Shown: positions 17,015 to 38,322 of the stretch, in pieces
Layout: every line of letters begins with the position of its first letter
Numbering within the stretch: the stretch's first letter is position 1
Source: a virus
Taxonomy: Duplodnaviria; Heunggongvirae; Uroviricota; Caudoviricetes
DNA: 64,000 bases
Direction: 5' to 3' (one strand)
Virus record (IMG/VR): IMGVR_UViG_3300009614_000107
Made by a program: the position numbers and the translations under genes
The notes under the pieces: model-generated
Databases searched by the model: none
What the model saw: only the letters and a program-made list of their open reading frames with translations
What the model was told of the DNA's origin: nothing

Positions 17015-17026
17015 TTTATAAATATT
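17015..17026. promoter_or_regulatory. TTTATAAATATT promoter element for tRNA-Lys(CUU)/tRNA-Arg pair
   Basis: about 25 nt upstream of tRNA 5' end. Confidence 0.6.
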
Positions 17027-17032
17027 TAGAAT

Positions 17033-17565: not shown

Positions 17566-17571
17566 ATTATA

Positions 17572-17727: not shown

Positions 17728-17734
17728 TTTAGGT

Positions 17735-17986
17735 TCACCTAACTTTCCTTATCTTGCTTGTAATTACAATTTCACCATCTTTAATATCCATTTTTACTGT
17801 TTGAATTTTAACTAGTTTGAAGATGTATTGATTGACACCTTGTTCATTAGCCCAACCTTGCTTAACATCCATTCCAAACTGTTTCTCTGCCTCTTTGAGG
17901 GTTTTGCACCAAGAAACTTGCTCGAAGGCACAACCATTACCGTGTGCTTCACGATTATCAAAACACTTAATATATTTTGTGCTCAT
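17735..17986 (-). CDS. hypothetical protein
   Basis: ORF. Confidence 0.4.
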   Translation of the reverse strand: MSTKYIKCFDNREAHGNGCAFEQVSWCKTLKEAEKQFGMDVKQGWANEQGVNQYIFKLVKIQTVKMDIKDGEIVITSKIRKVR

Positions 17987-18186
17987 TTCTTTGCAGACTC
18001 CTTCTCCTGTTTCATAACTGTAATACTATCCCAATAATTTTTCTCGTATATGCTCCTTCCTTTTTCATAGTTGAAAAAATGAATTAAGCACTCGATTACG
18101 TCTAATTCGTCTGTTGCCTCTCTTGAGAATTCGGTTTTTTGTTTACCTTCCTTTCCTTTCCATTTTATCGTGTATTTAGTGTTCAT
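17983..18186 (-). CDS. hypothetical protein
   Basis: ORF, overlapping start/stop. Confidence 0.4.
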   Translation of the reverse strand: MNTKYTIKWKGKEGKQKTEFSREATDELDVIECLIHFFNYEKGRSIYEKNYWDSITVMKQEKESAKK

Positions 18187-18419
18187 TCCTTTGCAACCTC
18201 TGCATCCACGGTCTTTAGGAATTCAATGAACTTGGCTATGTGGTTTTGACCAAGGTCATTCATAATCTCATCGTATCGCTCGACCCCTTCTGGATAGCCC
18301 ATCTCCTTGAGAACCTTGTCGATAATCTTCATTCGCTTGACAAGTCTTTCCTGTTCCTTGGGATCTGAGGATACAACCTTTCCATTTTTCACATACACAT
18401 TGATCGGCATTTGTTTCAC
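18183..18419 (-). CDS. hypothetical protein
   Basis: ORF. Confidence 0.4.
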   Translation of the reverse strand: MKQMPINVYVKNGKVVSSDPKEQERLVKRMKIIDKVLKEMGYPEGVERYDEIMNDLGQNHIAKFIEFLKTVDAEVAKE

Positions 18420-18629
18420 CTACACATTGAGAATCTTTGCCATTTTAATGAGATTCTTCTGTGTTTCAATTAGACTTTCCCTAATTGCTACAATCTCCAG
18501 AAGTTCTGGTGTGGTTATCTTATCAGTATTAAAAAATGCGTATTGATCAATCGCTTCTGCATATGGCTTCAAATCCATTGCAAAACGAACTCCTTCGAAC
18601 CACTGGCAATCACGCTTTCTAGCAGACAT
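18420..18629 (-). CDS. hypothetical protein
   Basis: ORF. Confidence 0.4.
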   Translation of the reverse strand: MSARKRDCQWFEGVRFAMDLKPYAEAIDQYAFFNTDKITTPELLEIVAIRESLIETQKNLIKMAKILNV

Positions 18630-18658
18630 TTTGAACGTAGGAGAGATAGATGTGTGAA

Positions 18659-18670
18659 TTTATAAATATT
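18659..18670. promoter_or_regulatory. TTTATAAATATT promoter-like element
   Basis: about 30 nt upstream of gene start 18629. Confidence 0.5.
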
Positions 18671-18682
18671 GTGATTAGTTAT

Positions 18683-18871
18683 TTATGGACAGATAATACT
18701 TCCTCTAATAAAATTATCATACTTCCTATTTTCCTTGAATTTCTCAATCTTTCTTTCACGTTCTGTAGGTGGAAGAACCTCACAAAAATTCGGGTATTGA
18801 TCCAAATGCCAGTGCCAGACCCATTCCTTATCCGACATTTGTTGACCACAATGCAAACACCTTACCATCAT
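18683..18871 (-). CDS. zinc-ribbon protein
   Basis: CLHCGQQ motif. Confidence 0.4.
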   Translation of the reverse strand: MMVRCLHCGQQMSDKEWVWHWHLDQYPNFCEVLPPTERERKIEKFKENRKYDNFIRGSIICP

Positions 18872-19290
18872 TTAGAATTGTTCACCTCACTGAGTTCTTC
18901 CATCAATGTTACTTTTTTGAGCTGGGTTGGTGGTGTTTGGACATCAATCGTTCCAAGTGTTGAGTCTACATTCCAAACCATAAACTTGAAACCACCAACT
19001 GTGAAATTTTGGGGTAAGTTGTTGTTATAAAATGTTATAATATATCCACCAAGGTGCATTGAATGTGTGAGAGGTGTAGCGGAAAATAAACCACCACCAT
19101 TGTCTGTAAAGCCATTATATGTGTATGGACCAAGTTGATCGCCTGGAATGAGGGTCACTATGTTCTTTGGTTTCAATGGAACTGGTGTTGTGAATACAGA
19201 TGAAATAATACTAATTATTGCTATAGACATAAATAATCCAAAAAATAGTTTTGGTATCATATCGAACATATCTAAGTCAGACACTTTCAT
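18868..19290 (-). CDS. membrane-anchored hypothetical protein
   Basis: N-terminal TM. Confidence 0.4.
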   Translation of the reverse strand: MKVSDLDMFDMIPKLFFGLFMSIAIISIISSVFTTPVPLKPKNIVTLIPGDQLGPYTYNGFTDNGGGLFSATPLTHSMHLGGYIITFYNNNLPQNFTVGGFKFMVWNVDSTLGTIDVQTPPTQLKKVTLMEELSEVNNSK

Positions 19291-19296
19291 TTCACC

Positions 19297-20142
19297 TTAT
19301 TCATCATCGTCTTGAGGATTAGAACGTGGTCTACCTCTCGGTCTTGTTGGTGGTAATGGTTGTGGCTTACTACGAACAAATGCACCTATTGAAAATGCCA
19401 TTGACATAACACAAAACCCAATAATTGTATAGAATTCCCATTCTGGTGCTATTTCTCCTTGGGGACCCTGAATGCCTTGAGGACCTGTTGCGCCTGTGTC
19501 ACCCTTATCACCCTTTGCACCAGTTGCACCAGTTAATCCCCTATCACCCTGTATTCCTTGTATTCCTTGTAATCCCTGTATGCCTTGTGTTCCGTTAAAT
19601 CCTCTTAATCCTTGAGGACCAACTGGACCAATAAGTTTTGCTTTTATAGTTGAGTTCAATTTATCAAACCAGTCTGGTGGTGGAATGAAATTTGTGATTG
19701 TAAATGATTTTGCAATTGTTACTTTACTTCCATCCATTCCTTCAACAATAATTTTTATTGTGTGCAGACCAAGATTAGAGTAGGGTGTTTGATTAGGTAC
19801 TAAAATAAATGTGTCCCAAGTTACTAAAATATTTGCTCCAGCAGTACTGTATAATGGTTCAGATTTAATAATCTCAGAAAAATCATCATAATATACATAT
19901 AAATATGAAGAAACTGGACAAGTTGTGTGATCAGCTTCTGGATTAACTTCAATATGTATATTTATTTTTGTATTAACATCACCAGATTCTGGTGATATTA
20001 TTACAGATAAATTATTTATTGGGACATCTGCTTTTATTAATTTAGGTGTAGAGATTACAAAACATATTAAAAAAATCATTAAGATAAATTTGTGTTTGAA
20101 CATTTTATAATTTCTCACCACAGTGTTTGCAAAACTGAGCAT
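19297..20142 (-). CDS. collagen-like triple-helix-repeat protein with signal peptide and C-terminal TM
   Basis: about 25 uninterrupted G-X-Y triplets (GPVGPQGLRGFNGTQGIQGLQGIQGIQGDRGLTGATGAKGDKGDTGATGPQGIQGPQG); C-terminal TM + RPRGRPR tail. Confidence 0.6.
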   Translation of the reverse strand: MLSFANTVVRNYKMFKHKFILMIFLICFVISTPKLIKADVPINNLSVIISPESGDVNTKINIHIEVNPEADHTTCPVSSYLYVYYDDFSEIIKSEPLYSTAGANILVTWDTFILVPNQTPYSNLGLHTIKIIVEGMDGSKVTIAKSFTITNFIPPPDWFDKLNSTIKAKLIGPVGPQGLRGFNGTQGIQGLQGIQGIQGDRGLTGATGAKGDKGDTGATGPQGIQGPQGEIAPEWEFYTIIGFCVMSMAFSIGAFVRSKPQPLPPTRPRGRPRSNPQDDDE

Positions 20143-20395
20143 CTTCAGAATTAAGTGTTTTGCATTTTTGGCATTTGATTTTTATACGTATTTTTTGGTC
20201 AGAATTAACTTCTTGTTTCATAATAATTTGCTGGTGTTGACTGGATGTGATTAAACCAGCAAAAAGTATTATTCCACCCAAAAACATTGCTGGAACACCT
20301 ATAAGTGCTCCTATAATTGTAAGTGAAATTAGCCATCCTAAAAAACCAATTATAAGCCCAATGATTATTAATCCAAGACGCAAGTTGATTACCAT
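20105..20395 (-). CDS. membrane protein with C-terminal double zinc ribbon
   Basis: start trimmed to MVINLRL to avoid overlap with tRNA-Ile; CQKCKTLNSEDAQFCKHCGEKL. Confidence 0.4.
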   Translation of the reverse strand: MVINLRLGLIIIGLIIGFLGWLISLTIIGALIGVPAMFLGGIILFAGLITSSQHQQIIMKQEVNSDQKIRIKIKCQKCKTLNSEDAQFCKHCGEKL

Positions 20396-20415
20396 AAAAT
20401 AACAAATATGAAAGT

Positions 20416-20427
20416 TTATAAATATTA
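20416..20427. promoter_or_regulatory. TTTATAAATATT promoter-like element
   Basis: 20 nt upstream of trimmed start 20395; abuts tRNA-Ile 3' end. Confidence 0.5.
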
Positions 20428-20433
20428 TGAAAA

Positions 20434-20510
20434 TGGTGGCGAAGAGCAGACTTGAACTGCTGATGCCCTGATTATCAGTCAGGTGGACTACCAAGCTGTC
20501 CTACTTCGCC
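20434..20510 (-). tRNA. tRNA-Ile (anticodon GAU), CCA encoded
   Basis: GGCGAAG...loop CTGATAA...GTTCAAGTC...CTTCGCCACCA. Confidence 0.8.
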
Positions 20511-20515
20511 AAGAA

Positions 20516-20596
20516 TGGTAGAGAGGATGGGATTCGAACCCACATAAAGGCAAGGATTATGAGTCCTCCGAGATAACCAGGTTCCTCTACCTCTCT
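20516..20596 (-). tRNA. tRNA-Met-like (anticodon CAU; A1:U72), CCA encoded
   Basis: AGAGAGG...loop CTCATAA...GGTTCGAATCC...CCTCTCTACCA; 5 nt from tRNA-Ile. Confidence 0.65.
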
Positions 20597-20628
20597 GGGT
20601 ATTATAAATAAAGTGTGTTTATAAAGAT

Positions 20629-22086
20629 TTATTCTCTGACGATGTAAAGGTTGTTTAATGACCTTGTTAGAGCTACAAACTTGCAGTTATCTTCCTCTTT
20701 CAACTGCTGGGGATTGCCCTGCTTTACAGCATATGGGTGTGGCATAAGATCATAGCGGAGTATGTAGACGTTCTCAGACTCAAGTCCCTTAGCCCTATGA
20801 ACACTGCTGAAAACTATGCCCTCAATATTGTCACGGAAAATGAATTTCACTTTTGATGTAAGATCGGTTATGGTTTTGCTCTCATCGGCTATAGCAAAGA
20901 TTGTGTCAACCCTGTCACTGAGGGTGAGTATTGATGCTTCCTTTTTCTGGATCTTCAACTTCTCGGTCTGCTTCTGCTGGTACTCTTTCAGACCGATTAG
21001 GAAAGTGCTGAGATCGGTAGCACCACACATCTTTACGACACGGTTGATTAGGTTCTCAAGCTGATCGCCTATGCTCTTGCCAACAATTATGACCTTCTTG
21101 CCGTTTCGAATAAGTTCGAAGGCTGGTTCTACGAGAGGGGCATTTGTTCGGCAGAGAACCATATCCTTCGGCTGGACTTTTTTCATAAATGTGGGATAGT
21201 CTATTTCCTCAACTTTTCCCTGCTTGGCATTTGGACCACATTCGTGTGTGATGTTTGGGAAGGTCTTGTTTACAAAGGCAACGACAGACTTTGGGTTTCT
21301 GTAACTGATGCTGAGTGGAAATTCGACAGCATCAAGCATATTTCCCAAGTAATCCATAGCATTGATTCCAGCTCCACGGAAACCGTATATGGCTTGGTTT
21401 CTGTCACCGATTACTATTGTGCATCCGTTGGGTTTCCTGATTTTGAGGATCATTTGAACCTGAGTCTCGTTCAAGTCCTGTGCCTCATCAACAAGGACAT
21501 AATCGTATTTTCTCATTGGGATATCGAGAACGACAGGAAGCCAGATCATATCATCATAATCGATTGTTTGTGTGTCTTTTTTAGATCGTTGTATAACATA
21601 ATTAACGGCCTTGAACACTGTTTTTTCATTACCATTTAATTTAATGTTATAGAAATCACACATTTCAATCATAGAATCTTCATCTTCTGAATCTGTTAAT
21701 GTGTTTTTCACATATTGAACAACTTTAGCAATTGTCTGCCAGAGCATTTTATTGACAACAGTGTCCTCTAGGATTGAGTATGTTTTTTGATTGTCCATAA
21801 TGAAATTACCATATACATTACGAAGTTCACGATTGCCAAGAGAATGAAGTGTTTTTGCTTCTCCACCAGGCATATTTGCTAGTTTTTCTTTTGCCTCAAG
21901 TTGATTCTTTTTATTAAAAACAAGATATATCCAGCTTTTATTTTTTGGTATATAATTTTTAATAAACTCTTGAATTGTTCGAGTTTTACCAGAGCCAGCA
22001 GTTGCACTCACTATGATGTTCTTATCTCCCTTTCTGCCAGCCTCAAAGATTGCCTTCTGGTATGAGGACGGGACGAATGTTGACAT
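20629..22086 (-). CDS. SF1 UvrD/Rep-like DNA helicase
   Basis: Walker A VSATAGSGKTRT, Walker B VLVDEAQDLN, IVIGDRNQAIYGFRGA (helicase motif III). Confidence 0.7.
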   Translation of the reverse strand: MSTFVPSSYQKAIFEAGRKGDKNIIVSATAGSGKTRTIQEFIKNYIPKNKSWIYLVFNKKNQLEAKEKLANMPGGEAKTLHSLGNRELRNVYGNFIMDNQKTYSILEDTVVNKMLWQTIAKVVQYVKNTLTDSEDEDSMIEMCDFYNIKLNGNEKTVFKAVNYVIQRSKKDTQTIDYDDMIWLPVVLDIPMRKYDYVLVDEAQDLNETQVQMILKIRKPNGCTIVIGDRNQAIYGFRGAGINAMDYLGNMLDAVEFPLSISYRNPKSVVAFVNKTFPNITHECGPNAKQGKVEEIDYPTFMKKVQPKDMVLCRTNAPLVEPAFELIRNGKKVIIVGKSIGDQLENLINRVVKMCGATDLSTFLIGLKEYQQKQTEKLKIQKKEASILTLSDRVDTIFAIADESKTITDLTSKVKFIFRDNIEGIVFSSVHRAKGLESENVYILRYDLMPHPYAVKQGNPQQLKEEDNCKFVALTRSLNNLYIVRE

Positions 22087-22088
22087 TT

Positions 22089-22313
22089 TTATACTTCCAA
22101 TGCTAATTCTCTACAAAGTTGTATAAACTCATTTTCTTGGCGTAGTGGATTAATATCCTCAATTTTTGAATTAAAAATATAACCACATTTTGGGCAGAGG
22201 CAATAATTCATCCAATAGCGATCTTCAATCAGCTTACGATAATAAAGTGGTTTTATATCACATTGTGGGCATACCCTATTTAGGATAATGTCCAAGTCCC
22301 TGTTGGTCAACAT
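22089..22313 (-). CDS. small zinc-ribbon protein
   Basis: CPQCD...CLCPKCGY. Confidence 0.45.
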   Translation of the reverse strand: MLTNRDLDIILNRVCPQCDIKPLYYRKLIEDRYWMNYCLCPKCGYIFNSKIEDINPLRQENEFIQLCRELALEV

Positions 22314-22364
22314 TTTATACGGTGTAGATGTGTTTAGTACTCTTATAAATATTGTGGATTATAG

Positions 22365-22570
22365 TTACAGGGGAGTGATTGGCTCCCCTGCCTGAGCTTC
22401 CTTGGTTATCAACCAGTGGACATTGAGACATACACGGTGATCAGTCGTGCTGTTACTCATTCTCAGGACGTATTTACCTGTCGCTTTCCCGATTACTAGT
22501 CGGGAGCAACATAGGGAACCACACCATTGGTAAGGTGTTACGCACAGGTTCCTTCGTAGAAGAAACACGT
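22365..22570 (-). ncRNA. candidate structured non-coding RNA (about 200 nt), family unassigned
   Basis: GC-richer island between promoter elements at 22345 and 22577; only a 67-aa low-complexity ORF; hairpins such as ggggagtgattggctcccc. Confidence 0.3.
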
Positions 22571-22576
22571 TAAGAC

Positions 22577-22588
22577 TTTATAAATATT
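22577..22588. promoter_or_regulatory. TTTATAAATATT promoter-like element
   Basis: immediately upstream of the candidate ncRNA; abuts tRNA-Thr 3' end. Confidence 0.5.
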
Positions 22589-22664
22589 TGGAGCCCCAGG
22601 CAGGACTCGGACCTGCGACCATCAACTTACAAGGTTGACGCACTACCAACTATGCTACAGGGGC
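22589..22664 (-). tRNA. tRNA-Thr (anticodon UGU), CCA encoded
   Basis: GCCCCTG...loop CTTGTAA...GGTCCGAGTCC...CTGGGGCTCCA (one U-U mismatch in acceptor stem). Confidence 0.7.
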
Positions 22665-22700: not shown

Positions 22701-23204
22701 TTAGATAAAAACAGGAATTTTGTTTATTTTCATTAAGTCTTTAATTGTTATTATTTTTACTTCATTTTCTATATAATTTCTAATATTTTCCCATCCCCAG
22801 ATACATTGTTCATTTTTAACATCTATAAATGGTTCATTATGTTCTTGTGCATTATCCATTGAAGATATTGGATATTGTAATAATTTTAAGAGTGGTATCA
22901 TCACTGCGTTTGTACCACCTTTATTTATTTGAATATAATATGAATATGGTTTTGCATATTTTAATTTACGTTCTAAAAAATGAACAGAATTGAATGAAAA
23001 ATAATCGTTCCAATATTTCTCGTGATTTTCTACTTCTATACCACCGACTAATGTTAGAGACTTCATAATTTGTATATCAATATCATATTTCTTTTCATTT
23101 CTTTTAATCCAAAACACATTTGATTTAATATTTTTAAAAACACAATTTATTGCAGGATCATTAAATTTTTTATTTGCTTTCTCGTCATATTCCTTATGAC
23201 CCAA
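22701..23204 (-). CDS. hypothetical protein (very AT-rich gene)
   Basis: ORF with markedly lower GC than neighbouring helicase. Confidence 0.4.
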   Translation of the reverse strand: MGHKEYDEKANKKFNDPAINCVFKNIKSNVFWIKRNEKKYDIDIQIMKSLTLVGGIEVENHEKYWNDYFSFNSVHFLERKLKYAKPYSYYIQINKGGTNAVMIPLLKLLQYPISSMDNAQEHNEPFIDVKNEQCIWGWENIRNYIENEVKIITIKDLMKINKIPVFI

Positions 23205-23208: not shown

Positions 23209-25005
23209 TCACCTAATAGCTTCCTTAAACCACTTCGGGAAGAATCCTATATTCTGGTTGAATAAGTCTGAGAACTTCCCATCAATTATGAAAGTCTCAC
23301 CCCAATCGTCAACACTTCTACAGACTCTACCATAAGTCTGGATTAGGAGCATTGCGGTTGTCCAGTTGTACCAGGATTGATCCTTTTCGACCCTCTTCTT
23401 AATCTGAGGATCACCGAGAGATGGATAGGGTACTTTAACTAGGACTTGCCATCTAGCCAAATCATCTTTTAGGTCGATGCCCATTTTCATACTCGGTGTT
23501 GTCATAATGCAAGGTGCTTTTGCTTGGAAGAATCTCTCGAAAGTATCTTCACGCCTCTCATCTGTGTCAATAAAGTTTCCTCTCTCATCTCTAAGAGAAA
23601 CATTGGTCATCATATACTGCTTGTATTTTGAATTAGCCATAATATATCTTGCAATTTCGTTATTGTGAGTGTGTATTACACCTTTGTGCTGCAAACGAGT
23701 TGGAATGATATCGTTGTCAATTATTCTAAGCATATTCGGTAGGAACTGATCCATTTCTTTGAAAATCGCTCTTCCAGCAAATTTTTGGTAGAGTGGACGA
23801 TGTTCGACTGGGAATGTTGAGTTGCCTATTCTGAAAAACTTAACCTCTTCTTCTATGCCTAAGTATTTCTGTAATTTTTCTTTGTCAAGTATTGTGGCCG
23901 ATATAAGAATGTGTTTGTCAGTGTGCTTGAAAAGCTGGTCAGAATATTTATTAATTGTAACTGGTTTGAAAGTGGCAGATGTTTTGTCTTTTAAGACAAC
24001 CCAGTTATCAATATCATCTTCTAGACTATCTAGCAACTCTGTGATTCTATTTGTTATATTTTCAACTGTTTTACGACTCTTCAGTTCTTGTACACGATTT
24101 GAACTATCACCTATATCCCTTTGGATTGAGGCGAAAGTTCCATACTTTTCTGAGATCCCTTTAAGTTCACCCTGGATATTCTGCAACCATTTTTCCCAAT
24201 CTTCCATTTTTGTGTATTCTGGTATTATTGGAAATGGCATATCTTTAAAATACATCCAAATACCATTAAATGTTCTCGAAGAAATTAAAACTTCAATATA
24301 GGTCATTAAAGTATTTTCGATTGTGTGTGCCTCATCAAAGATTCCTAAAAATCTTTTATTGAAGCTGTGTGCGTGATTTTGTTCGTGAAGGTAATAGGAA
24401 TAGTTGTGGATGGTAAGAGGTGAATGGATTGCCTTGTCCTTGGCTTGCCAGTAGGCACAGAGTGGATAAGAACAATTGCTCCAATCGAACTTAACTCCAA
24501 ACTTGTCACGATCTGCTCTCGGTGACGCATTATCATCTTCAAAATTTTCTGGGTCAATTTCAGCACCCATCTCCATATCGGTTAGTGCAGACTCACGTTT
24601 TACTTGGTTTGCCTTGTGGGGGCATTTGTAACCATTAATCAGGGTACACGGTGCTCTGTCTGCATAGAGTGTGTTCCCTATTCTCTCAGCCCAAAACTCT
24701 GGTTCCATATCTCCTGCTGTGAGAGAGCAGGGATAATTGCCCCTACCTTTGATTAGTGCTATGTCTGGAAAATCACGTAGATACTGTCCCTGTAGGTAGA
24801 TGTCGTTTACAACAAAGTGTGTAAGGTTGCCATATTCCTGATAGACATACTTAGCGATTGCATAGGCTACAGGTGACTTACCAAAGCCTGTAGGTGCTTC
24901 TAGGAAGATGTAATTGTAGGGATCAAGGTTGGCTTCTATAAGACTTAGGATTTCCTTCTGGTATGGACGGAATTCCTTGAATGGGAAACAGGCTTCAATT
25001 GCCAA
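23209..25005 (-). CDS. SF2 DEAH-box DNA helicase
   Basis: Walker A APTGFGKSPV, DEAH box IFDEAHTIEN, helicase C-terminal region. Confidence 0.65.
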   Translation of the reverse strand: MAIEACFPFKEFRPYQKEILSLIEANLDPYNYIFLEAPTGFGKSPVAYAIAKYVYQEYGNLTHFVVNDIYLQGQYLRDFPDIALIKGRGNYPCSLTAGDMEPEFWAERIGNTLYADRAPCTLINGYKCPHKANQVKRESALTDMEMGAEIDPENFEDDNASPRADRDKFGVKFDWSNCSYPLCAYWQAKDKAIHSPLTIHNYSYYLHEQNHAHSFNKRFLGIFDEAHTIENTLMTYIEVLISSRTFNGIWMYFKDMPFPIIPEYTKMEDWEKWLQNIQGELKGISEKYGTFASIQRDIGDSSNRVQELKSRKTVENITNRITELLDSLEDDIDNWVVLKDKTSATFKPVTINKYSDQLFKHTDKHILISATILDKEKLQKYLGIEEEVKFFRIGNSTFPVEHRPLYQKFAGRAIFKEMDQFLPNMLRIIDNDIIPTRLQHKGVIHTHNNEIARYIMANSKYKQYMMTNVSLRDERGNFIDTDERREDTFERFFQAKAPCIMTTPSMKMGIDLKDDLARWQVLVKVPYPSLGDPQIKKRVEKDQSWYNWTTAMLLIQTYGRVCRSVDDWGETFIIDGKFSDLFNQNIGFFPKWFKEAIR

Positions 25006-25948
25006 CGTCTATACCACCGAGTTGATATTTTCTTACGTGATTACGAATTGAAACCTCTGTCACGCCACAGGTTGTTGCTATAACCTTCTGGGAGATGTTA
25101 AGTTCCATCTTCTTGGATGCCAGATAAATTGCACAAGCTGCTACACAGAGTGGACTTGAGCCACTTGTGATTTTTAAGTCCTCTGCCTCTCTGCAAATCT
25201 TTAGGGCTAACATTTCAAATTCACCAGATAGGTTTAACTTAGAGGTGAACTGGGAAATAAAGATTGCAGGATCCCTGCGAGTTGGCTTGATCTTCATTGA
25301 TTCTACCATAAGGCGATAGCAACGAGCAATATCCTTCTTGTCGATGCCTGTGACCTCTTCAATATTCTCCATTGTTGTTGGAATGCCATTCTCTCTGAGG
25401 CTGTAGTACATACAGGCAACTAGGATTTGCTGGATTGAACGTCCTCTAATGAGGTTTATGGCCACCGATTTTGTAAATATATCAAAGATATCGTCATCTA
25501 TTGCATCTGGTATGCTGAGTCTGTATTTGTAGGTTGTATAAAGTGACCTTGCAGAGGATAGTGTTCTGGTTAGAGATGCCTTATCACCTGTTGCCCTATT
25601 GTTCATTCTTGAAAGACGAAGATATTCTATCTTCTTTTCTCCTGTAAGTTTCTTGTTTTGACCATCTAAATTTGACCAAGGAGCAATCCTTGTATGGCTT
25701 GAAGAGCCATTAACGACACCTGGATTTGTGATTGGCGTAGCCCTGTCAAGTTGCTGTGGCTCACCATCAAAGTTTCGCCATTCCTTGTCTCTGGAAATTA
25801 CTTGTTCCTCAAGAACAACCAACCCACAGTTTTTGCAAACAACCTCACCAGTAACATTATCGTGATAGAAGTCACGACTGCCACAAATTGGGCAGTTTAA
25901 TGGAGCATCTTGTGGGGCTTCGTGGGACGGGTCATTAGACATAAACAT
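24995..25948 (-). CDS. tfb: transcription factor B (TFIIB homolog)
   Basis: N-terminal Zn ribbon CPICGSRDFYHDNVTGEVVCKNCG; cyclin-fold core; start trimmed to MFMSNDP about 20 nt downstream of TATA at 25968. Confidence 0.8.
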   Translation of the reverse strand: MFMSNDPSHEAPQDAPLNCPICGSRDFYHDNVTGEVVCKNCGLVVLEEQVISRDKEWRNFDGEPQQLDRATPITNPGVVNGSSSHTRIAPWSNLDGQNKKLTGEKKIEYLRLSRMNNRATGDKASLTRTLSSARSLYTTYKYRLSIPDAIDDDIFDIFTKSVAINLIRGRSIQQILVACMYYSLRENGIPTTMENIEEVTGIDKKDIARCYRLMVESMKIKPTRRDPAIFISQFTSKLNLSGEFEMLALKICREAEDLKITSGSSPLCVAACAIYLASKKMELNISQKVIATTCGVTEVSIRNHVRKYQLGGIDVGN

Positions 25949-25967
25949 CACTCCTATTGTACCTACA

Positions 25968-25979
25968 TTTATAAATATT
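25968..25979. promoter_or_regulatory. TTTATAAATATT promoter element for tfb (near-leaderless)
   Basis: between PolB stop (25989) and tfb start. Confidence 0.55.
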
Positions 25980-25988
25980 ATGAGATTT

Positions 25989-28325
25989 TTATCCAAACCA
26001 CTCATTTAGGTTTGCGAAACCTTCAACATTTTCCCAACCTATTCCAACTGCCTCTAGGATCCTCTCTAATGGGGAACGCACGGTTCTTTCAATTACCCAA
26101 TCATAATCTATTTCTATACCCTTTCCGACTAGGCTTTGCTTGTCTAGATATGAACACCAATTTGTTTGTTCCCAAGAACCGTTGTTAATCCTTTTTACTC
26201 TAAAGTACTTTACAAGATCACCTGGAACGATTTCTTCTTTAAGGAATTTATTTGACCAAATTGCACCGTCATAATATTCACCACCAGCATCCTGTTTAAG
26301 GAAGTTCTTTGAGAGGTTGACGGGGATAACTATCTGGTCGATATCGTATGTTCCACCTCTGATATCAGCCATCAACTTACCCAACTTTGCAACAAACTCC
26401 TGTGCTTGTCCGTGCAGAACCATCTCGATACACTCTTTTTGCAGTTTGCGTGTTACCTCAGATGTGTTTCCACGGATGTAGTCGAAACCCTTGATGAGGA
26501 TGTAGTCGCAGGATCGACCATCTTCTCTAATAATACGCTGTGCATATCTCTTCTTAGCACCTGTCTCTTTGCCCTTTTTCTTAATGAAAAGGCTTTCAGA
26601 GGCATACCTATCCTCTTTGATTTTGAATTTGGCTGTCTCGGCTATGCCATTTTCCTCTGCCCACTTCAGTAACTCATCGTTCATTGCAGCTTCGAGTTCT
26701 GGTACACGTTCCATTGGGGCATCGATGAATATGGAATCTGTATCACCGTAGATGACCTTGAAACCCATAGATTCTGCTCTCTTCTGGAGTCTGTGTAAAC
26801 CATCTCCAGCAGTTTTGAGAACGAAGTCTGCCTTTGCCTTTGAGAAGATACGACTGCCCTTGAATGCAAAGTATCCCCAAGCACCTGAGAGGAAAGCCTT
26901 AACCTTATCTCGTGTGTCCTTTACAACCTTGTACTGTGCAGAACCAGGCTCATATTTCAGAAGTTCCTTGTCCCACACTTCACGTTCACTTAATAAATCA
27001 TTGATAACTGCTGGACCCAACTTGCCCCAGATATCTGGAGAAGTTTCCATAGGATAACTTCTGAGGATACTTGGGTAGTATCTGCTCATATCCAGCACGA
27101 CTAAGTTTGGATAAATCTTTGGCGGTGGAGTGAACACTACACCACCATACTCTAAGTCCTCTTCACTCTGCTCCTCTGGAGAGGATGGTAGAACCATTCC
27201 AAGTCCGTGTGCTTTTCTAAGCCAGAAGCAGTCGTGACGCTTAATGTGTTCGAGTGTGTAGTTTATGTCGTGAAGCCCTACAAAGTTCTTCTCTCCCCAG
27301 AAGGACTGTATGAAGCGGTATTCCTTCCACTCACCAGTGTTGACATCCTTGAAGCCTCTGTCGAGCTTGACACAGTAGTCAACGTCCATCTTATTGTATA
27401 GAATGAACTCATCTCTCTTTGTAGGGTCAAGGTATGTATCGATTCTGAAGAATTCGGACACCATATCCTCTTGTTTGATTATCCCTTCCCTGATAACAAC
27501 TTCCTTTAGTCTGTTACCTAGGTTTGGTCTAGTCTTTGTGTAGGCATTATGTAGGTCGAAGATTTCTGTTCCAGCCCAATCAACCTTGAGATTGAACTGT
27601 TTCTTAGCCCAAGCATCAAAGTACTCGGTATCAAATCTGATATTCCAGCCTGTAACTATATCTGGCTTGAGGTAGTCAAAATACTTCTGGATATAATCAA
27701 TTAGAGCAACGTAAGAAGCAACGTGAACAACTTTCCAGTTCTCCTCTCTTTGCTCAACCTGTGTGGCCAAGAACCGATCATCAACAACAAACGTGATATA
27801 TTGCTCACTTTTGTTGTCCCAGAAGGTGACACAGATAATTGGCTGAGTTGGGTTGTTCTTGTTTGGGAATCTGATGCCCTGAGCCTTTGTCTCAATGTCC
27901 ATATAGACAACTAGAGGCTGGAGAACAACATTGGCTGGTTTTATGGTGTCAAATGGAATGATTGAAGAGTTCCCATCATAGTAGAATGAGGATTTGACAC
28001 CTGTGTCAATCAGCATACGTTCTACAAATTCAATATCTGCTTCCCAATGCTTTGAGAAATTGTCTCTGTGGTTACTTACTTCAAGTGGATTTTGAACAAC
28101 TATTTTTACTAACTTTTCACCGTCTTTTGAAATGAACCCAGGCTCAATGCGTTTAATCCAAGGTGCATTCTCTGGAATTGATTCACCATCGTGGACGTAC
28201 ATATAAGGGTCGAACTTGGAGATTCTGAACATTCTCTTCTCTCCAGTGTTCGAGCGACAGTAAATATTAATGAAGCCTGTCTCTCCATCGTAATGACCTT
28301 TAACGTACTGCCAGACAGTGGACAT
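25989..28325 (-). CDS. polB: family B DNA polymerase with 3'-5' exonuclease domain
   Basis: Exo I MDIET, Exo II WNIRFDTEYF, Exo III YNKMDVDY, Pol A LDMSRYYPS, Pol C VIYGDTDSIFI. Confidence 0.9.
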   Translation of the reverse strand: MSTVWQYVKGHYDGETGFINIYCRSNTGEKRMFRISKFDPYMYVHDGESIPENAPWIKRIEPGFISKDGEKLVKIVVQNPLEVSNHRDNFSKHWEADIEFVERMLIDTGVKSSFYYDGNSSIIPFDTIKPANVVLQPLVVYMDIETKAQGIRFPNKNNPTQPIICVTFWDNKSEQYITFVVDDRFLATQVEQREENWKVVHVASYVALIDYIQKYFDYLKPDIVTGWNIRFDTEYFDAWAKKQFNLKVDWAGTEIFDLHNAYTKTRPNLGNRLKEVVIREGIIKQEDMVSEFFRIDTYLDPTKRDEFILYNKMDVDYCVKLDRGFKDVNTGEWKEYRFIQSFWGEKNFVGLHDINYTLEHIKRHDCFWLRKAHGLGMVLPSSPEEQSEEDLEYGGVVFTPPPKIYPNLVVLDMSRYYPSILRSYPMETSPDIWGKLGPAVINDLLSEREVWDKELLKYEPGSAQYKVVKDTRDKVKAFLSGAWGYFAFKGSRIFSKAKADFVLKTAGDGLHRLQKRAESMGFKVIYGDTDSIFIDAPMERVPELEAAMNDELLKWAEENGIAETAKFKIKEDRYASESLFIKKKGKETGAKKRYAQRIIREDGRSCDYILIKGFDYIRGNTSEVTRKLQKECIEMVLHGQAQEFVAKLGKLMADIRGGTYDIDQIVIPVNLSKNFLKQDAGGEYYDGAIWSNKFLKEEIVPGDLVKYFRVKRINNGSWEQTNWCSYLDKQSLVGKGIEIDYDWVIERTVRSPLERILEAVGIGWENVEGFANLNEWFG

Positions 28326-28435
28326 AGAATCAGCCTGTCTTGTTTTTATTTACTGATTCTCCAAATTGAATTGCTTGGTAGGTCATACCCACATTTTTCT
28401 GTCCGTGGATGGAGATTGTTATATATTTATCTTTT

Positions 28436-29464
28436 TTAGAGTTGACCATTATTCATTAATTCCTCCTCTTCCTGTCTAGCATCTGGGTTGCGAATTGGAC
28501 AGTCTGAGAATCTATCGTATAGGCAAGCACCCCTTGTTTTAAGCCTTGTGCAGGAGTACTCCTTGAGATCCATACAGGAATGGATTTGGCTGATTGTTGT
28601 GTCGTAATCCCAGTCTACCCATTTGAGTTGGGCATACATATCGGCTATCTGGTGTGGTTTCCAGAATCTGAGTAAATCAACTGTGGCTGCTACACGAATG
28701 AAATGGAGTGGGTTAGGAGCACAAAGTGCCTTGAAGATGCAGGGACGAAGTTGTCCTTCTAGATAGATTGGTGCAGAGTTCTCGGATGAACTTGTATTGA
28801 ATAGAGGTGCTTCTTCGTCTGTCTCTATCCGTTTTATCTTTGAGAGATCGACTGTCTTGAAGTCATAGAGTGTCTTGTTTGGCACTGAAACTGTGTTAAA
28901 CTCGTGTGGCATCTTAGTCCAATTTACAACGTCCTTCCAGGACATATCAAGGAACCAAGGCGGTAGAGCAACACAGTAACTTGCATTGTTTGGCGGTCTG
29001 CGTGTGTTTGGTAGACGGCTGTATCTGCTGATGTCACCTATGCAGTGTGGGTCAACGGTTGTTTTAACATAATCATCTTCACCAAAGGTATCTATCAGGA
29101 TACGATAGGTAGAAGATGTTAGCAACTTCTTTGAGTCTGGATATTGACGTGGGGTAAGGAGAACATAGAGATGTATGCCCTTCTTACCAGATGCCACAGG
29201 AACGACTGTATGCTTCTGCTTTACGAGATATTGAAAAATGGCTTTAGAATCTTCCAGAGCTCGCCCATATCCATCAAAGTCAAAATATACCTTGTCTATC
29301 ATTCCACTTAGAGGATATATTTTAACGAAGCAGTCATTCACGCCTTCGTTATAAGATAAAAAACTTTTGAGTTGCTTGATATCAAAAACTATGGTATCAA
29401 TTGGATTTCCCACTATCCTTGGGAACTGACCAAAAAGCTGGAGAGTGAGAAGATCAGGGATCAA
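28436..29464 (-). CDS. archaeo-eukaryotic primase (PriS-like) with C-terminal Cys cluster
   Basis: motif I VYFDFDG, motif II SGKKGIHLY, motif III VDPHCIGDISRYSRLPNTRRP; four C-terminal Cys. Confidence 0.7.
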   Translation of the reverse strand: MIPDLLTLQLFGQFPRIVGNPIDTIVFDIKQLKSFLSYNEGVNDCFVKIYPLSGMIDKVYFDFDGYGRALEDSKAIFQYLVKQKHTVVPVASGKKGIHLYVLLTPRQYPDSKKLLTSSTYRILIDTFGEDDYVKTTVDPHCIGDISRYSRLPNTRRPPNNASYCVALPPWFLDMSWKDVVNWTKMPHEFNTVSVPNKTLYDFKTVDLSKIKRIETDEEAPLFNTSSSENSAPIYLEGQLRPCIFKALCAPNPLHFIRVAATVDLLRFWKPHQIADMYAQLKWVDWDYDTTISQIHSCMDLKEYSCTRLKTRGACLYDRFSDCPIRNPDARQEEEELMNNGQL

Positions 29465-29469
29465 TTTTT

Positions 29470-30027
29470 TTATCCTCCAATAGTAAACAACCCAATATCA
29501 TTGAAATTTATCTTTGCATATTTACCAAACAATTCAATGGCTTTACTATCATAGGCTCTAGCTGCATCTTCTTCTGTATTAAATGTGCCTAAATATATTA
29601 TTGTTCCATCTTTCACTATACGACTATACCATTTATTATTGTTTTTACTCACACCTTTATATTTGCTTAAACACATTTTTCTATTTCGTGTTTTCTGCTT
29701 TCTACTATTAAATTTATTTTGCTGGTTTGAAACTATTCTTAAATTACACTTACGATTATCAAGACCATCACCATTAATATGATCGATTTGCTCATTTGAA
29801 TTTACATTTAAAATTAATCTATGTATTGAATTTCCTTTGTTGCCAACTCTTCCAGATTCTGCATACCAGATACCATCTCTTTTATTGGCATACCAAGTAT
29901 GATTTTTTACATTATCATAATCTTCTGAATCTATAATAGCAGATTTATTTTGAGTTAATGAAATTATACAAATTTTACTTAATTTATCTTCAATTATTTT
30001 ATTATGTTTTCTGCTACCAAATTTCAT
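29470..30027 (-). CDS. HNH-AP2 homing endonuclease
   Basis: HNH IDHINGDGLDNRKCNLRIVSNQQN plus AP2 domain YKGVSKNNNKWYSRIVKDGTIIYLGTFNTEEDAARAYD; extremely AT-rich. Confidence 0.75.
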   Translation of the reverse strand: MKFGSRKHNKIIEDKLSKICIISLTQNKSAIIDSEDYDNVKNHTWYANKRDGIWYAESGRVGNKGNSIHRLILNVNSNEQIDHINGDGLDNRKCNLRIVSNQQNKFNSRKQKTRNRKMCLSKYKGVSKNNNKWYSRIVKDGTIIYLGTFNTEEDAARAYDSKAIELFGKYAKINFNDIGLFTIGG

Positions 30028-30040
30028 TTTTAGACACCAT

Positions 30041-30262
30041 TTATTTCATATCTTTTCTGACATCCACCTTTGGAGGGATTGTAATGACACTGTTGGCTTG
30101 TGTTACACCAAAAATTGGATGTCCTTTTGGATCAAATTTGTTGTCGAACACAAGAGACACAACACTTGTACGTATCAATATAGTGTAACCTTTGAACTTA
30201 CCCTCTGTCACTGTAACCTGTAATTCTCCAGACTTATCAGATTTAAAATCAATGAATTCCAT
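30041..30262 (-). CDS. hypothetical protein
   Basis: ORF. Confidence 0.4.
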   Translation of the reverse strand: MEFIDFKSDKSGELQVTVTEGKFKGYTILIRTSVVSLVFDNKFDPKGHPIFGVTQANSVITIPPKVDVRKDMK

Positions 30263-30272
30263 AAAAAATCGC

Positions 30273-31064
30273 CTAAGTAACTGCTGTCATATACATAAGC
30301 GAGAAGGTATCGTTGAGTTGGGTGATAAAGATTCCTCTCTCGTAGATAGTCACCACAACATTATCTGAGAAGTTTGCTAGGATATCTGCTAGGTGGTCGA
30401 TGAAGAATGTATAGTCTATCTTCTCACCCTGACCAGCAGTTCTAGGCTTCATAACTTCTAGGGGTGTAATCTTCTCACTATATTCACCACCTAGAGTGAA
30501 GTAGAGTGTAAGGCTTGGGCCATTTGTTCTATATGTGACCTTATCGATGCCCTTTGGTGTTGAGAGTGCAGATGCAGGAACCCTGATTTGGTAGTGTATA
30601 GGACGATCTTCCTTGGCTGGTAGCCAACCGATTGTAGGCTTCTCAGCAATAGTCATTTTGAGAGGCTGAACCTCTGGGTTAGATAAGACAGGGTGATAGT
30701 CAGATCGTGTGCCTGAAATGTTGAGTCTGCTATTAGGTATGTCTGTTTCGACAGTAATTTCTGCTTCACTGCCAAATTTGAGACTCTGCATATTTGCAAA
30801 CAATTCCTTTGTAAGTTTGATTGTCTCTGGTGCTGGGCATTCATACTTTGTGAAATATCCAGGCTTGAATGTGTTGTGAACACCAAATGTTCCAGCTCTG
30901 CTGGTTGATGTTGTCACCAACTCTGGTGTGAATGAAACTTCCATTGCTTCGAAGTGATTATTGATTAATCCCTTGCGAATGATATCAAGGAACTTCTGTG
31001 GACTACAACTGAATTTTGTCAATCTTCCTTCACCTTTACTATCTCGTGCTGTCTCTTCCTGCAC
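30273..31064 (-). CDS. hypothetical protein (size and position compatible with a divergent sliding clamp; unverified)
   Basis: 263 aa between primase and clamp-loader genes; no diagnostic motif seen. Confidence 0.4.
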   Translation of the reverse strand: MQEETARDSKGEGRLTKFSCSPQKFLDIIRKGLINNHFEAMEVSFTPELVTTSTSRAGTFGVHNTFKPGYFTKYECPAPETIKLTKELFANMQSLKFGSEAEITVETDIPNSRLNISGTRSDYHPVLSNPEVQPLKMTIAEKPTIGWLPAKEDRPIHYQIRVPASALSTPKGIDKVTYRTNGPSLTLYFTLGGEYSEKITPLEVMKPRTAGQGEKIDYTFFIDHLADILANFSDNVVVTIYERGIFITQLNDTFSLMYMTAVT

Positions 31065-31282
31065 GTTTTATGGATGTGCCATTTCTGTCCATTTCTAGTG
31101 ACAGAAACCCTATCTGCACGTATTATATGCTTGCCACATATTGGACAAGTTTCTAGATTGGGCTGGATGTGACCGTTCTCGAAGGTCATCTCTGGATGCA
31201 CAATCTTTACTTTGTTATGGTAAAAAATTGGATTGTTTGGATTTCCCATTACTTTTTCTCCTCCACTACTAACCTCTTCCAA
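31019..31282 (-). CDS. zinc-ribbon protein
   Basis: CPICGKH...HKTCRK. Confidence 0.4.
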   Translation of the reverse strand: MEEVSSGGEKVMGNPNNPIFYHNKVKIVHPEMTFENGHIQPNLETCPICGKHIIRADRVSVTRNGQKWHIHKTCRKRQHEIVKVKED

Positions 31283-32346
31283 ATATCTACTTTTCCTGGT
31301 TCACAGGTGATATCTGCCTTGTGTCCTGTTGGCATATCTGTATGCTTGGATGATATGATGTGGGCATAGAATCTTGGGATTCCTGTTTCCTTATTGATGT
31401 CAACCGTGTTCTCTATCACGATGTCTGTCTGTTCCTCAACGATGTCAACCCAGATTGGAACTTTCTTCTTCTCGACTACCATTCCAGCGATCTTGGTTTC
31501 TTCCCACTCGTACTTGGTGCAGAAGATGACACCCTGCTTGACGATGCTTCCTATCTTGATGAACAGTTGCTTGATGTAGAGCCTACGATCCTTCCAGTAC
31601 TGCCATTCCACACCCTGTGTGAGCTTGAGGTTGTTCCTGAACCTCATAACGTTCTCGGCTATAGACTTGTACTCTTCGAACCCGTCTATGATTATCCAGT
31701 CTGGATATTCTGACTGAGCACCTGACTTAATCTTGTCTAGGATAGCATTGATGAATTGGAATGTAATCTCTGAGGACATTAGTGTTGCATCTGGAGAACT
31801 GTAGTCCATATACTTGATGGCGTTCATAATGGTAATTCTTGTATCAGACTTGAACATTGTGAACCAAGCCTCAACTGTCTTGTTATCAAAAGACAGTGCA
31901 AGGACTTTTCCAGGTGCTGAAAGTGCCAGAGTTGACTTAGATGTACCTTTACCACCAAAAATGGTGATGTATTTGAGGCTACTCGGTGCTTGTGGTGTGA
32001 AATCAAATTCCTTTGGCATCTCAGGTAGAGGTGCATCGGGAAGAGCATTCTTTCTTGTATCTAATGAAGAAAGTCCTGCCAATAATGGATTAGGTATTGG
32101 TTGTGCCATCTTTGGTGTTTCCTTCATATCAAGAAGTCCACCACCTGGATTTCCTTTTGGATTAAGTGATTCCTGTGGTGCTATAGTTTGTGCTGGTGCT
32201 TGCTCTATTGGTTTGAGAGGTTCTTTTGGAGGAACTTGTTCCTTTGGCTTTTCCTCAACTACTGGTGCTTGGGGTACAGGAGCAGGAGTTTCCTTCTTCT
32301 CCTCTACCTTTGGTGGGCCTTTCTTAAACAGTTCCTCTATAGACAT
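31249..32346 (-). CDS. RecA-superfamily P-loop ATPase with Pro-rich N-terminal region
   Basis: Walker A FGGKGTSKST, Walker B-like IIIDGFEEY; N-terminal PAPVPQAPVVEEKPKEQVPPKEP. Confidence 0.5.
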   Translation of the reverse strand: MSIEELFKKGPPKVEEKKETPAPVPQAPVVEEKPKEQVPPKEPLKPIEQAPAQTIAPQESLNPKGNPGGGLLDMKETPKMAQPIPNPLLAGLSSLDTRKNALPDAPLPEMPKEFDFTPQAPSSLKYITIFGGKGTSKSTLALSAPGKVLALSFDNKTVEAWFTMFKSDTRITIMNAIKYMDYSSPDATLMSSEITFQFINAILDKIKSGAQSEYPDWIIIDGFEEYKSIAENVMRFRNNLKLTQGVEWQYWKDRRLYIKQLFIKIGSIVKQGVIFCTKYEWEETKIAGMVVEKKKVPIWVDIVEEQTDIVIENTVDINKETGIPRFYAHIISSKHTDMPTGHKADITCEPGKVDIWKRLVVEEKK

Positions 32347-35988: not shown

Positions 35989-36881
35989 GATGGGATAAAA
36001 TAGCACCAAAGACAACTTCCGAGTTGCTAGGAAATCCCAAGGCTCACGAGTCATTGATGAGATACGTTAAGGAACGTACTGCTGTATGTTTAGTCGGTGA
36101 TCCAGGCTCAGGAAAGACTACCGCAGCATATGTGGTGGCTCGTGAGTTAGGTTTGAATGTGATGGAGCTCAATGCTTCTGACGAGAGAACAAAGGAATCT
36201 TCCCTTCCAGAGTTTGTTGAACTCTGCCAACAAGTACCAATGACAGGAGAAGGACTTCTTTTCCTGTTAGATGAGGTAGATGGTATGGGTTCGGTTGATG
36301 GTAAGGGAGCCTGGGAGTATGTCAAAGATATTTTGAAGTACTCCAAACACGCTGTTGTGTTGACTTGTAATGATGATTATAAAATTCCTGCTACAGTGAA
36401 AGGTTTACTTGTAACTGTTAAGTTGATAAAACCCAATGTAAAAACTGTTGAAAAATATGCTGCTAAAATTGCAAAGGAAAATTTGCGTACAACTGCACCT
36501 ACAACTGATGAATTGACATCTGACTTTAGAAATGCTATTAATGTTGCACTATTTGGTGGAGAACCCTACAAAGAACAGAATACATACACATTGACACACA
36601 AGTTCTTCGTTGAAGGGGATGTGGAGAGGATTGATGATGTTCCTCTACCTTTCCTCTTTGACAATGCCCCAAACTATCTAAAGGGGTGGGACTTGTTCCA
36701 GTTTTACAGAGTACTCAGAATATCAGCTATTAGCAATCAAACTGGAGCACTGTCCTTATCCCCCAGAGGTTCTGGGACATATGCCAGATTCCCTGGCTAT
36801 ATGAGAATGCGATCTAGTCGCAAGAAGGGTGAGGATGATGTCGAATCAACAACAACAGACGAAAACGGGCAGAAGAGTTGA
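35985..36881 (+). CDS. rfcL: RFC large-subunit-like clamp-loader ATPase
   Basis: Walker A GDPGSGKTT, NASDERTKE, LDEVDGM; lacks SRC motif. Confidence 0.7.
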   Translation: MRWDKIAPKTTSELLGNPKAHESLMRYVKERTAVCLVGDPGSGKTTAAYVVARELGLNVMELNASDERTKESSLPEFVELCQQVPMTGEGLLFLLDEVDGMGSVDGKGAWEYVKDILKYSKHAVVLTCNDDYKIPATVKGLLVTVKLIKPNVKTVEKYAAKIAKENLRTTAPTTDELTSDFRNAINVALFGGEPYKEQNTYTLTHKFFVEGDVERIDDVPLPFLFDNAPNYLKGWDLFQFYRVLRISAISNQTGALSLSPRGSGTYARFPGYMRMRSSRKKGEDDVESTTTDENGQKS

Positions 36882-38322
36882 ACTAACTTCTTCTGGTTTG
36901 GTTAGAGAACTAACCGAGTTTATGCTAGATGGGGTAAACACCCATCCAGATTGGGTAGAAAGTTTGGCAGTAGCTTTAGTTGGTATGTTGGCTGGAAAGA
37001 ACAGGTATATGGTCAACAACCTTGGAAAGGTCAGGGCTAATCTATTCTTCATTATAGTTGGGGCTAGTGGACTCAGTATGAAGTCTGTGCCACTTATGAA
37101 GGTGGCTAGACCTATTCTGAAGAAACTTACTAAGGCTGTAAATGATGACGTACTGAAAGATGCTGGAATCAAGGAAGAGGAATTCCTAGCACGTAAGATG
37201 GCCAACAACAAGGCAGATGCTAAGGAGAGAGGAAAGGACGAGTGGAAAAAGGAGAAGGCTTGGCTTGATGAGTTGGAGAAAAGTATGGTTGATTTTGTCA
37301 CACCTACCAGCTTCACGTCAGAACTTCTCACAACATTCCTGAGCAAGCACCCACAGGGTTTAATCTGTGGTGACGAGTACACCAAGATGTTCAAGGGAAC
37401 TTTGAAGAAAGATTACCTTACAGACAATATGGAAGATCTCAGTCGAATGTATGACTGTGATATGGAGAAGAAGGGTACTCAGACTAGGGGAATCGAGAAC
37501 CCAGAGGATGCCTATGTTAGCTTTACTTCCGCTACTACATATTATCTTCTGACAATAATGACCGATGACTTTTTCCTACAGGGAACAGGTAATCGGATAC
37601 TCTGGATTCTTGATGAGGAACTTTATCCTATGGATATCGAGAAGGAAGAGGGTAAGTTCTTCTGGGACTTGAACAGGGAAACAGAGTTCAACAACAAGAT
37701 GGATGAACTGGTAATCAAGCTAATGAATGTTAGGTATCTCCCAGAAGGAATCATAATGCCTAACTATGCTGCTGGAATCATGCTGGATAGATATAGGATA
37801 GAGATGTATAATGAGGCTGTAAAGAAGTTCAATGAGGATATTCTGAATAAGGATGCTAACCTAATTTCCAGACTTGCACAGAACTCTATGAAGTTGGCTT
37901 TGGCACATGCTATTGGTAGATATGCTGTAGATGACCGTGGAACATATCACGATGTTACACAACTTGAGATTGTAGAAGAGGATGCTAAATGGGCAATTGA
38001 AAAGACCAGAAAACACTATGAATACTATAAGAGAATGTGGGAAGTTGCTTCAACAATTAAGATTGGTACTATGAAGAATTACAAGGCTGACCAAGAACGT
38101 GTACTATTCATAATGGATAAGATAGAGAGTCAGGGAAAGCATATGACAACAGCCAATCTCAGAAAACACACTGGTTGGGATAAGGCAGAATGTCAGAAGT
38201 TGCTGGATACTATGGTTTCGAATGGTCAGTTAAAGTACCTTGAAGGACTGTCTGGTATTCATAAATATGGATATTATACACACAGTACTGAAGAGGATCC
38301 TCAAGATCAAAAGACTGTGTGA
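36829..38322 (+). CDS. hypothetical protein (497 aa) with degenerate P-loop-like segment
   Basis: VGASGLSMKS; no confident family. Confidence 0.5.
   Translation: MRMMSNQQQQTKTGRRVELTSSGLVRELTEFMLDGVNTHPDWVESLAVALVGMLAGKNRYMVNNLGKVRANLFFIIVGASGLSMKSVPLMKVARPILKKLTKAVNDDVLKDAGIKEEEFLARKMANNKADAKERGKDEWKKEKAWLDELEKSMVDFVTPTSFTSELLTTFLSKHPQGLICGDEYTKMFKGTLKKDYLTDNMEDLSRMYDCDMEKKGTQTRGIENPEDAYVSFTSATTYYLLTIMTDDFFLQGTGNRILWILDEELYPMDIEKEEGKFFWDLNRETEFNNKMDELVIKLMNVRYLPEGIIMPNYAAGIMLDRYRIEMYNEAVKKFNEDILNKDANLISRLAQNSMKLALAHAIGRYAVDDRGTYHDVTQLEIVEEDAKWAIEKTRKHYEYYKRMWEVASTIKIGTMKNYKADQERVLFIMDKIESQGKHMTTANLRKHTGWDKAECQKLLDTMVSNGQLKYLEGLSGIHKYGYYTHSTEEDPQDQKTV

Follow-up and report, generated by a model that had tools for sequence, protein, structure and literature searches.

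Is the AT-rich HNH-AP2 gene that sits among the replication genes of this large virus-like replicon a homing endonuclease gene, and has it moved between related genomes? We addressed this question in a 64,000-nucleotide stretch of DNA, referred to below as the window, and in the contigs of its relatives. Taking together the domain architecture, the intact catalytic residues, the polymorphic insertion site and the alien composition, all of which bear out the homing-endonuclease reading of the original prediction, we consider it likely (roughly 80%), as judged from sequence, that this ORF belongs to the HNH(HNN)-AP2 class of free-standing homing endonuclease genes.

Position, composition and domains of the HNH-AP2 gene

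The gene and its surroundings comprise the following features.

29470..30027, minus strand: putative HNH-AP2 endonuclease ORF (ATG start, 185 aa, from the ORF list)
29707..29823, minus strand: HNH (HNN) nuclease core, residues 69-107, with H69, D82-H83, N91-R92, N95, R97, N104 and N107 invariant in alignments
29500..29667, minus strand: AP2 DNA-binding domain, residues 121-176
30041..30262, minus strand: conserved 73-aa gene, the upstream flank, whose homologues directly abut the primase in relatives L019, L020, L021 and L017
28436..29464, minus strand: primase-like gene (archaeo-eukaryotic primase superfamily), the downstream flank, with a TTG start that is ATG in relatives with an empty site
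25989-28325, minus strand: PolB, 778 aa

On the minus strand the gene order is a 263-aa gene, the 73-aa gene, the HNH-AP2 gene, the primase-like gene, PolB and TFIIB. The HNH-AP2 gene therefore does not lie between the primase and PolB genes, where it had been placed earlier, but between the 73-aa gene and the primase-like gene. The 5-nt gap described at the same time does exist; it separates the HNH-AP2 stop from the TTG start of the primase rather than primase from PolB. The gap between the 73-aa gene and the HNH-AP2 gene is 13 nt. The gene is free-standing, located between conserved genes and outside an intron, and no paralogue was found in the window, where it is present as a single copy.

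The composition of the ORF is clearly distinct from that of its surroundings. Its GC content is 0.267 and its GC3 is 0.156, against GC values of 0.41-0.43 and GC3 values of 0.37-0.45 for the primase, PolB, TFIIB and the 263-, 365- and 328-aa genes, which confirms the predicted AT-richness relative to the flanking primase and PolB genes. The 73-aa neighbour is intermediate (GC 0.356, GC3 0.311). Only one of the window's 65 ORFs that reach 120 aa has a lower GC than the HNH-AP2 ORF.

Both motifs quoted in the original prediction are present in the ORF. Pfam HNH_3 (PF13392) matches residues 77-104 with 25.5 bits (cut-off 24.8), Pfam AP2 (PF00847) matches residues 121-167 with 33.3 bits, exactly at the cut-off of 33.3, and the PHROG_99 family 'HNH endonuclease' matches at 5.7e-34. 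A database search returned 876 HNH-AP2 homologues, nearly all of them annotated with both HNH_3 and AP2, and D82, H83, N91, R92, N95, R97, N104 and N107 are invariant across 56 aligned homologues. A profile of the N-terminal half matches only I-HmuI (1u3e) among solved structures. In this alignment D82, H83, N95 and N104 correspond to D74, H75, N87 and N96 of I-HmuI, with an identical 21-residue spacing from H to N, so that the HNH catalytic residues, on which the prediction depended, are all in place. An AlphaFold2 model of the 185-aa protein has a mean pLDDT of 88.7; around the HNH motif it comprises strand 80-83, strand 96-99 and helix 101-106, a predicted β-β-α arrangement. Fold searching was convincing for the AP2 half only and missed I-HmuI when applied to the nuclease half. 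The AP2 domain is assigned from its profile match and from a three-stranded sheet packed on a helix. By its D-H, N and N residues the protein belongs to the I-HmuI-like HNN subgroup (HNH_3) and is a putative nuclease.

The nearest annotated relatives are the 'HNH homing endonuclease' proteins of the Bacillus phages Stahl, Slash and Staley (41-43% identity), and homologues of about 50% identity are found in unrelated phage contexts. Both HNN-AP2 genes of the free-standing kind and homing without introns are well established in phages (PMC2248197, PMC2993671, PMC2988022), and such genes are documented in T4-related phages, Xanthomonas phages and others (PMC2993671, PMC2248197). Examples include those of the T4-related phages RB49, JSE and RB43, of the Xanthomonas phages Xp10, OP1 and Xop411, and of Stahl, Slash and Staley. 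The window gene shares with them an HNN-type His-Me motif (DH...DNR..NLR...N) followed by AP2, a small size, a site between conserved genes and a patchy distribution. It differs in that its replicon carries TFIIB/TFB, an RFC small subunit, PolB and an AEP primase, and in that it is a single copy, whereas many phages carry several HNN-AP2 genes. A limited literature search found no link between the HNN-AP2 class and archaeal viruses.

I-HmuI (PDB 1u3e, Bacillus phage SPO1), which has matching D-H, N and N positions in its nuclease core, is a nickase. It is encoded within a group I intron of a polymerase gene and its C-terminal DNA-binding modules differ from AP2, whereas the window gene has no intron and AP2 as its DNA-binding domain. 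By analogy, the HNH-AP2 enzyme may nick one strand, as I-HmuI does.

The gene also resembles mobE and seg of T4, being an intergenic insertion between conserved, co-transcribed genes of replication or nucleotide metabolism. In T4, free-standing HNH and GIY-YIG genes located between conserved genes home without an intron and co-convert flanking sequence; mobE and seg spread by break repair with co-conversion, and in related phages segH or hef replace them at the same loci (PMC2988022). Mob proteins have other C-terminal domains and their homing and cleavage sites were shown experimentally, whereas homing of the window gene is predicted from sequence.

The gene thus fits the known HNN-AP2 homing class on every feature that can be tested computationally, and it does not challenge current understanding. 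Since the class is textbook, what the finding adds is mainly annotation and context; the host, a replicon with archaeal-type replication and transcription genes, is mildly unusual.

Filled and empty alleles of the insertion site

Relatives were collected as a graded series of primase homologues from the protein database, followed by retrieval of their contigs. L018 (primase 54% identical) was left out for lack of upstream synteny, and L023 because its contig begins inside the primase. A scan of IMG/VR with the primase protein yielded relatives of about 27% identity only, exact patterns of the empty and filled junctions had no matches, and a scan of metagenome contigs with the primase gave distant relatives only. 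The alleles found are as follows, with identities given relative to the window primase.

L019: primase 91% identical, site empty
L020: primase 86% identical, site empty
L021: primase 82% identical, site empty
L022: primase 81% identical, a different AT-rich ORF of 119 aa directly upstream of the primase start
L016 (and the fragment L011): primase 76% identical, site filled by a 188-aa HNH-AP2 gene, 82% identical
L017: primase 62% identical, site empty

The comparison with relatives lacking the insert that the original prediction called for thus shows a site that is filled in the window and in L016/L011 and precisely empty in four related lineages (L019, L020, L021 and L017). In a neighbour-joining tree of the primases, the window has the empty L019 as its sister with 100% support (200 bootstraps); the filled L016 branches outside this pair, and the empty L017 is external to all of them. 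This distribution, set against the refuting condition of the original prediction, favours mobility: the nearest primase relative is empty and the more distant L016 is filled. The gene was either gained twice at the same nucleotide, or gained once and precisely lost several times. With two filled lineages available, a single ancient gain followed by losses is inseparable from repeated gains, and both histories fit the prediction of a homing cycle. Within the window's own strain the gene is uniform: at least 15 contigs, drawn from several samples and up to about 197 kb long, encode the identical protein (100%), and all retrieved contigs of the strain, which were found through the HNH-AP2 protein, carry the gene. 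Samples containing this genome include SRR5824233, JGI 3300018005 and 3300018018, and ERZ27250059.

The junction alignment defines the insert and a candidate translation signal.

29464..30043, minus strand: inserted segment of about 580 nt, delimited to within 1 nt by aligning two filled with two empty alleles across the junction
29473..29478, minus strand: GGAGGA, Shine-Dalgarno-like, encoding the two final glycines of the HNH-AP2 protein and situated 8 nt before the primase TTG

The insert measures 580 nt in the window, with a GC content of 0.264, and 581 nt in L016. It is positioned exactly within the 4-nt ATGA stop/start overlap of the 73-aa gene and the primase. At empty sites the homologue of the 73-aa gene ends ...ATGAAATGA, its TGA overlapping the ATG of the primase, and the junction reads ...ATGAAA/TGATCC..., where the slash marks the insertion point. 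The filled junction reads ...ATGAAA[ TAAATGGTG...HNH-AP2...GGAGGATAAAAAAAT ]TGATCC..., and an artificial empty junction built on the window's flanks would read ...AGAAAAGATATGAAATGATCCCTGATC... The new TAA stop that ends the 73-aa gene, the spacer of 13 nt and the HNH-AP2 ORF all belong to the insert, as does the initial T of the primase TTG, so that the primase start changes from ATG in the empty alleles to TTG in the presence of the insert. L016 and L011 have this GGAGGA as well, and the HNH gene of L016 reuses the original TGA. The GGAGGA and the new TTG would keep the downstream primase translated once translational coupling is lost. The locus would then provide a small example of an insert that preserves the expression of an essential downstream gene, through a new stop, GGAGGA and TTG. 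The mapped ATGA site and the natural empty alleles can also be used to test the cleavage specificity of HNH-AP2 enzymes.

The insert is neither a transposon nor intron-borne, since its ends (TAAATGGTG... and ...GGATAAAAAAAT) are not inverted repeats, no target-site duplication was seen at the junction, and no Rfam family or group I intron was matched in 28000-31500. No transposase domain was found with Pfam either, and a transposon or insertion sequence was rejected on these grounds.

L022 carries a different sequence upstream of its primase. The 119-aa ORF (L022:12-371, plus strand; GC 0.319, GC3 0.217) overlaps the primase start by 11 nt. Only 11 nt of contig precede this ORF, which leaves its left boundary and the 73-aa gene out of view. 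The sole match of the ORF is a sub-threshold one to Pfam REase_MTES_1575 (E 0.009); searches of PDB, NCBIfam, PHROG and PADLOC gave none. The ORF may be a second kind of mobile nuclease at the same landing site, comparable to the alternative occupants of the T4 mobE/seg slot.

Age of the insert, proposed homing and its alternatives

The HNH-AP2 copies of the window and L016 differ by a dN of 0.096 and a dS of 0.93. The resulting omega of about 0.1 indicates that the protein is under purifying selection. In both filled lineages the codon usage is alien and AT-rich (GC3 of 0.156 in the window and 0.228 in L016, compared with about 0.37-0.49 in most flanking genes), as the proposed composition check anticipated. 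Because each copy is AT-rich relative to its own host, this composition is a stable property of the gene and not a mark of recency. The original prediction of a recent selfish insertion is supported in its selfish character; its recency is not supported, given the dS of about 0.9 between two AT-rich copies and the presence of the gene in all own-strain contigs. A comparison of synonymous rates was considered as evidence of recent transfer and set aside as indecisive: the synonymous sites of the flanking genes are saturated, and AT-biased third positions inflate the identity of the HNH genes, so that their lower dS is partly an effect of this bias.

We then asked whether sequence next to the insert is shared by the filled alleles, by counting sites at which the window agrees with L016 and not with a reference, and the reverse.

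Against L019: 11 to 1 in the last 60 nt before the insert, 210 to 271 in the rest (Fisher p 0.0016)
Against L019, unsupervised scan: 18/20 consecutive informative sites at -79..+28 favour window and L016 (permutation p 0.005)
Against L021: 19 to 5 in the last 60 nt, 165 to 167 in the rest (p 0.0056)
Against L020: 8 to 5 in the last 60 nt, 210 to 204 in the rest (p 0.58)
30044..30121, with 29435-29463 downstream, minus strand: possible co-conversion tract, with excess sharing between window and L016 relative to L019 or L021

The excess depends on the reference, being significant against L019 and L021 and not against L020. The genomes are generally mosaic; the 73-aa protein of the window, for one, resembles its L020 and L016 counterparts more than the one from L019. 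The counts hint at co-conversion around the junction, and the signal is not robust.

In the homing cycle that these observations point to, the AP2 domain, probably together with the N-terminal β-rich region, would recognise a specific sequence in related genomes lacking the gene. The I-HmuI-like His-Me finger would nick or cut the recognised DNA, and recombination repair from a co-infecting filled genome would copy the gene and a short flanking stretch into the broken one. The replicon's own PD-(D/E)XK exonuclease and helicases could serve in this break repair. For the window gene, cleavage activity, a target site and homing itself are inferences.

An older history without active homing is an unlikely account. 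The gene would have been gained once in the ancestor of the group, inherited vertically and now be disappearing, with L019, L020, L021 and L017 emptied by recombination with empty alleles and the element persisting elsewhere as harmless or mildly useful. The divergence of the two AT-rich copies, which speaks against a recent insertion, agrees with such a history, as do the identical copy in every retrieved contig of the window's strain and a co-conversion signal that is not robust. However, at least three or four independent and precise restorations of the ATGA would be needed, or else an ancestral empty allele that persisted, which amounts to a homing cycle, and the outgroup L017 is empty. 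The strong purifying selection and the intact catalytic residues also argue for what would be a working nuclease.

That same selection could also reflect a domesticated HNH-AP2 protein, employed as a regulator of the replication operon or as a nickase in replication or recombination rather than as a selfish element. AP2 domains are transcription factors elsewhere, and the gene is co-oriented within the replication operon, a few nucleotides from each neighbour. We regard domestication as improbable, since the closest relatives keep an otherwise identical operon without the gene, which is hence dispensable; its codon composition is alien, the family is scattered over unrelated phages, and L022 has a different ORF directly upstream of the primase start. 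It is more improbable still that the gene came as a moron-like passenger, by transposition or illegitimate recombination, with the endonuclease playing no part in its spread. Sequence-independent insertion has been suggested for the HNN-AP2 genes of Xanthomonas phages (PMC2248197), but here the insertion point matches to the nucleotide in two diverged lineages, whose insert ends are homologous, and neither inverted repeats nor target duplications are present.

Homing may also have a wider setting at this locus. Tentatively, the junction of the 73-aa gene and the primase could be a contested landing site at which unrelated selfish nuclease genes replace one another, with HNH-AP2 in two lineages and the 119-aa AT-rich ORF in L022; inteins also occur in the PolB genes of relatives. 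The hosts would perhaps form a previously undescribed group of archaeal-type virus-like replicons of roughly 200 kb from wetland and peat-type metagenomes. Were this doubtful reading true, the locus would be the first tractable case of intronless homing and of the passage of an HNH-AP2 gene of bacterial-phage type into archaeal viruses. The locus also shows that these poorly known large replicons exchange DNA by recombination among relatives.

The host replicon

The neighbourhood of the insert encodes an RFC small subunit, TFIIB/TFB, a family B polymerase, a PD-(D/E)XK exonuclease and several helicases, and the replicon genes are tightly packed with overlapping stops and starts. The best PDB matches of the RFC small subunit are archaeal RFCS, and the best annotated matches of PolB are in haloarchaeal tailed viruses, at only 24% identity. 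We call the replicon archaeal-type and virus-like because of these replication and transcription genes and because its PolB is closest to that of haloarchaeal tailed viruses. No virion genes were found among the scanned ORFs, and 'virus' is for that reason not proven from the window.

The label 'primase' combines several lines of evidence. Invariant AEP motifs are present (D62xD64, G93..G96xH98 and D138, that is DxD, GxxGxH and D), some of the 44 homologues have precomputed matches to PF01896 (PriS) or PF04104 (PriL), and there is a weak profile match to the LigD polymerase domain (E 0.0019). One homologue, P0150 (38% identical, on a 25.6-kb contig), is labelled at NCBI as a hypothetical protein of a Patescibacteria group bacterium; either this is a mis-binned viral contig or it hints at a primase family that extends beyond archaeal elements.

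Four PolB homologues (P0175, P0176, P0177 and P0187) are 38-52% identical and 1080-1148 aa long. Intein/LAGLIDADG Pfam matches (PF14528, PF14890) are precomputed for P0175, P0177 and P0187 and none is recorded for P0176, which lies on a 213.7-kb contig of another large relative; the 778-aa PolB of the window has no intein. Since several related PolB genes carry inteins, the replication module attracts selfish elements. TFIIB/TFB (24995-26005, minus strand) is full-length, with a zinc ribbon and two cyclin repeats, and runs into the end of PolB; about 325 nt separate the two genes in L016.

Farther along, a 497-aa protein (36829-38322, plus strand) has a DUF3987 (primase/helicase-associated) domain and a weak match to the EAP30/Vps36 family that stays under the cut-off (E 1e-4). 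Seven tRNA genes (Trp, Lys x2, Arg, Ile, Met and Thr) are located at 15236-22664 on the minus strand, interspersed with genes for a UvrD-like helicase, a collagen-repeat protein and a Band-7 protein. Between tRNA-Thr and a 598-aa helicase gene lies a 167-aa ORF (22701-23204, minus strand) with the lowest GC in the window (0.242) and no match in Pfam, PHROG or PADLOC; it is possibly another foreign insert, and it is unrelated to the 119-aa ORF of L022. About 6 kb at 5700-11900 (minus strand) consist of some 20 small ORFs of 70-113 aa on one strand, with no larger genes and a strong negative AT skew. A 758-aa protein (40871-43147, plus strand) contains a domain of GH5 cellulases (4.8e-38), cargo that is unusual in a virus-like replicon. 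Finally, a long co-oriented cluster of sugar-modification (glycosylation) genes with a lower GC of 0.29-0.39 extends over ~44400-63500 on the minus strand, and includes several family-2 glycosyltransferases, an NAD epimerase/dehydratase, a B12-radical SAM enzyme, a GHMP kinase and a methyltransferase.
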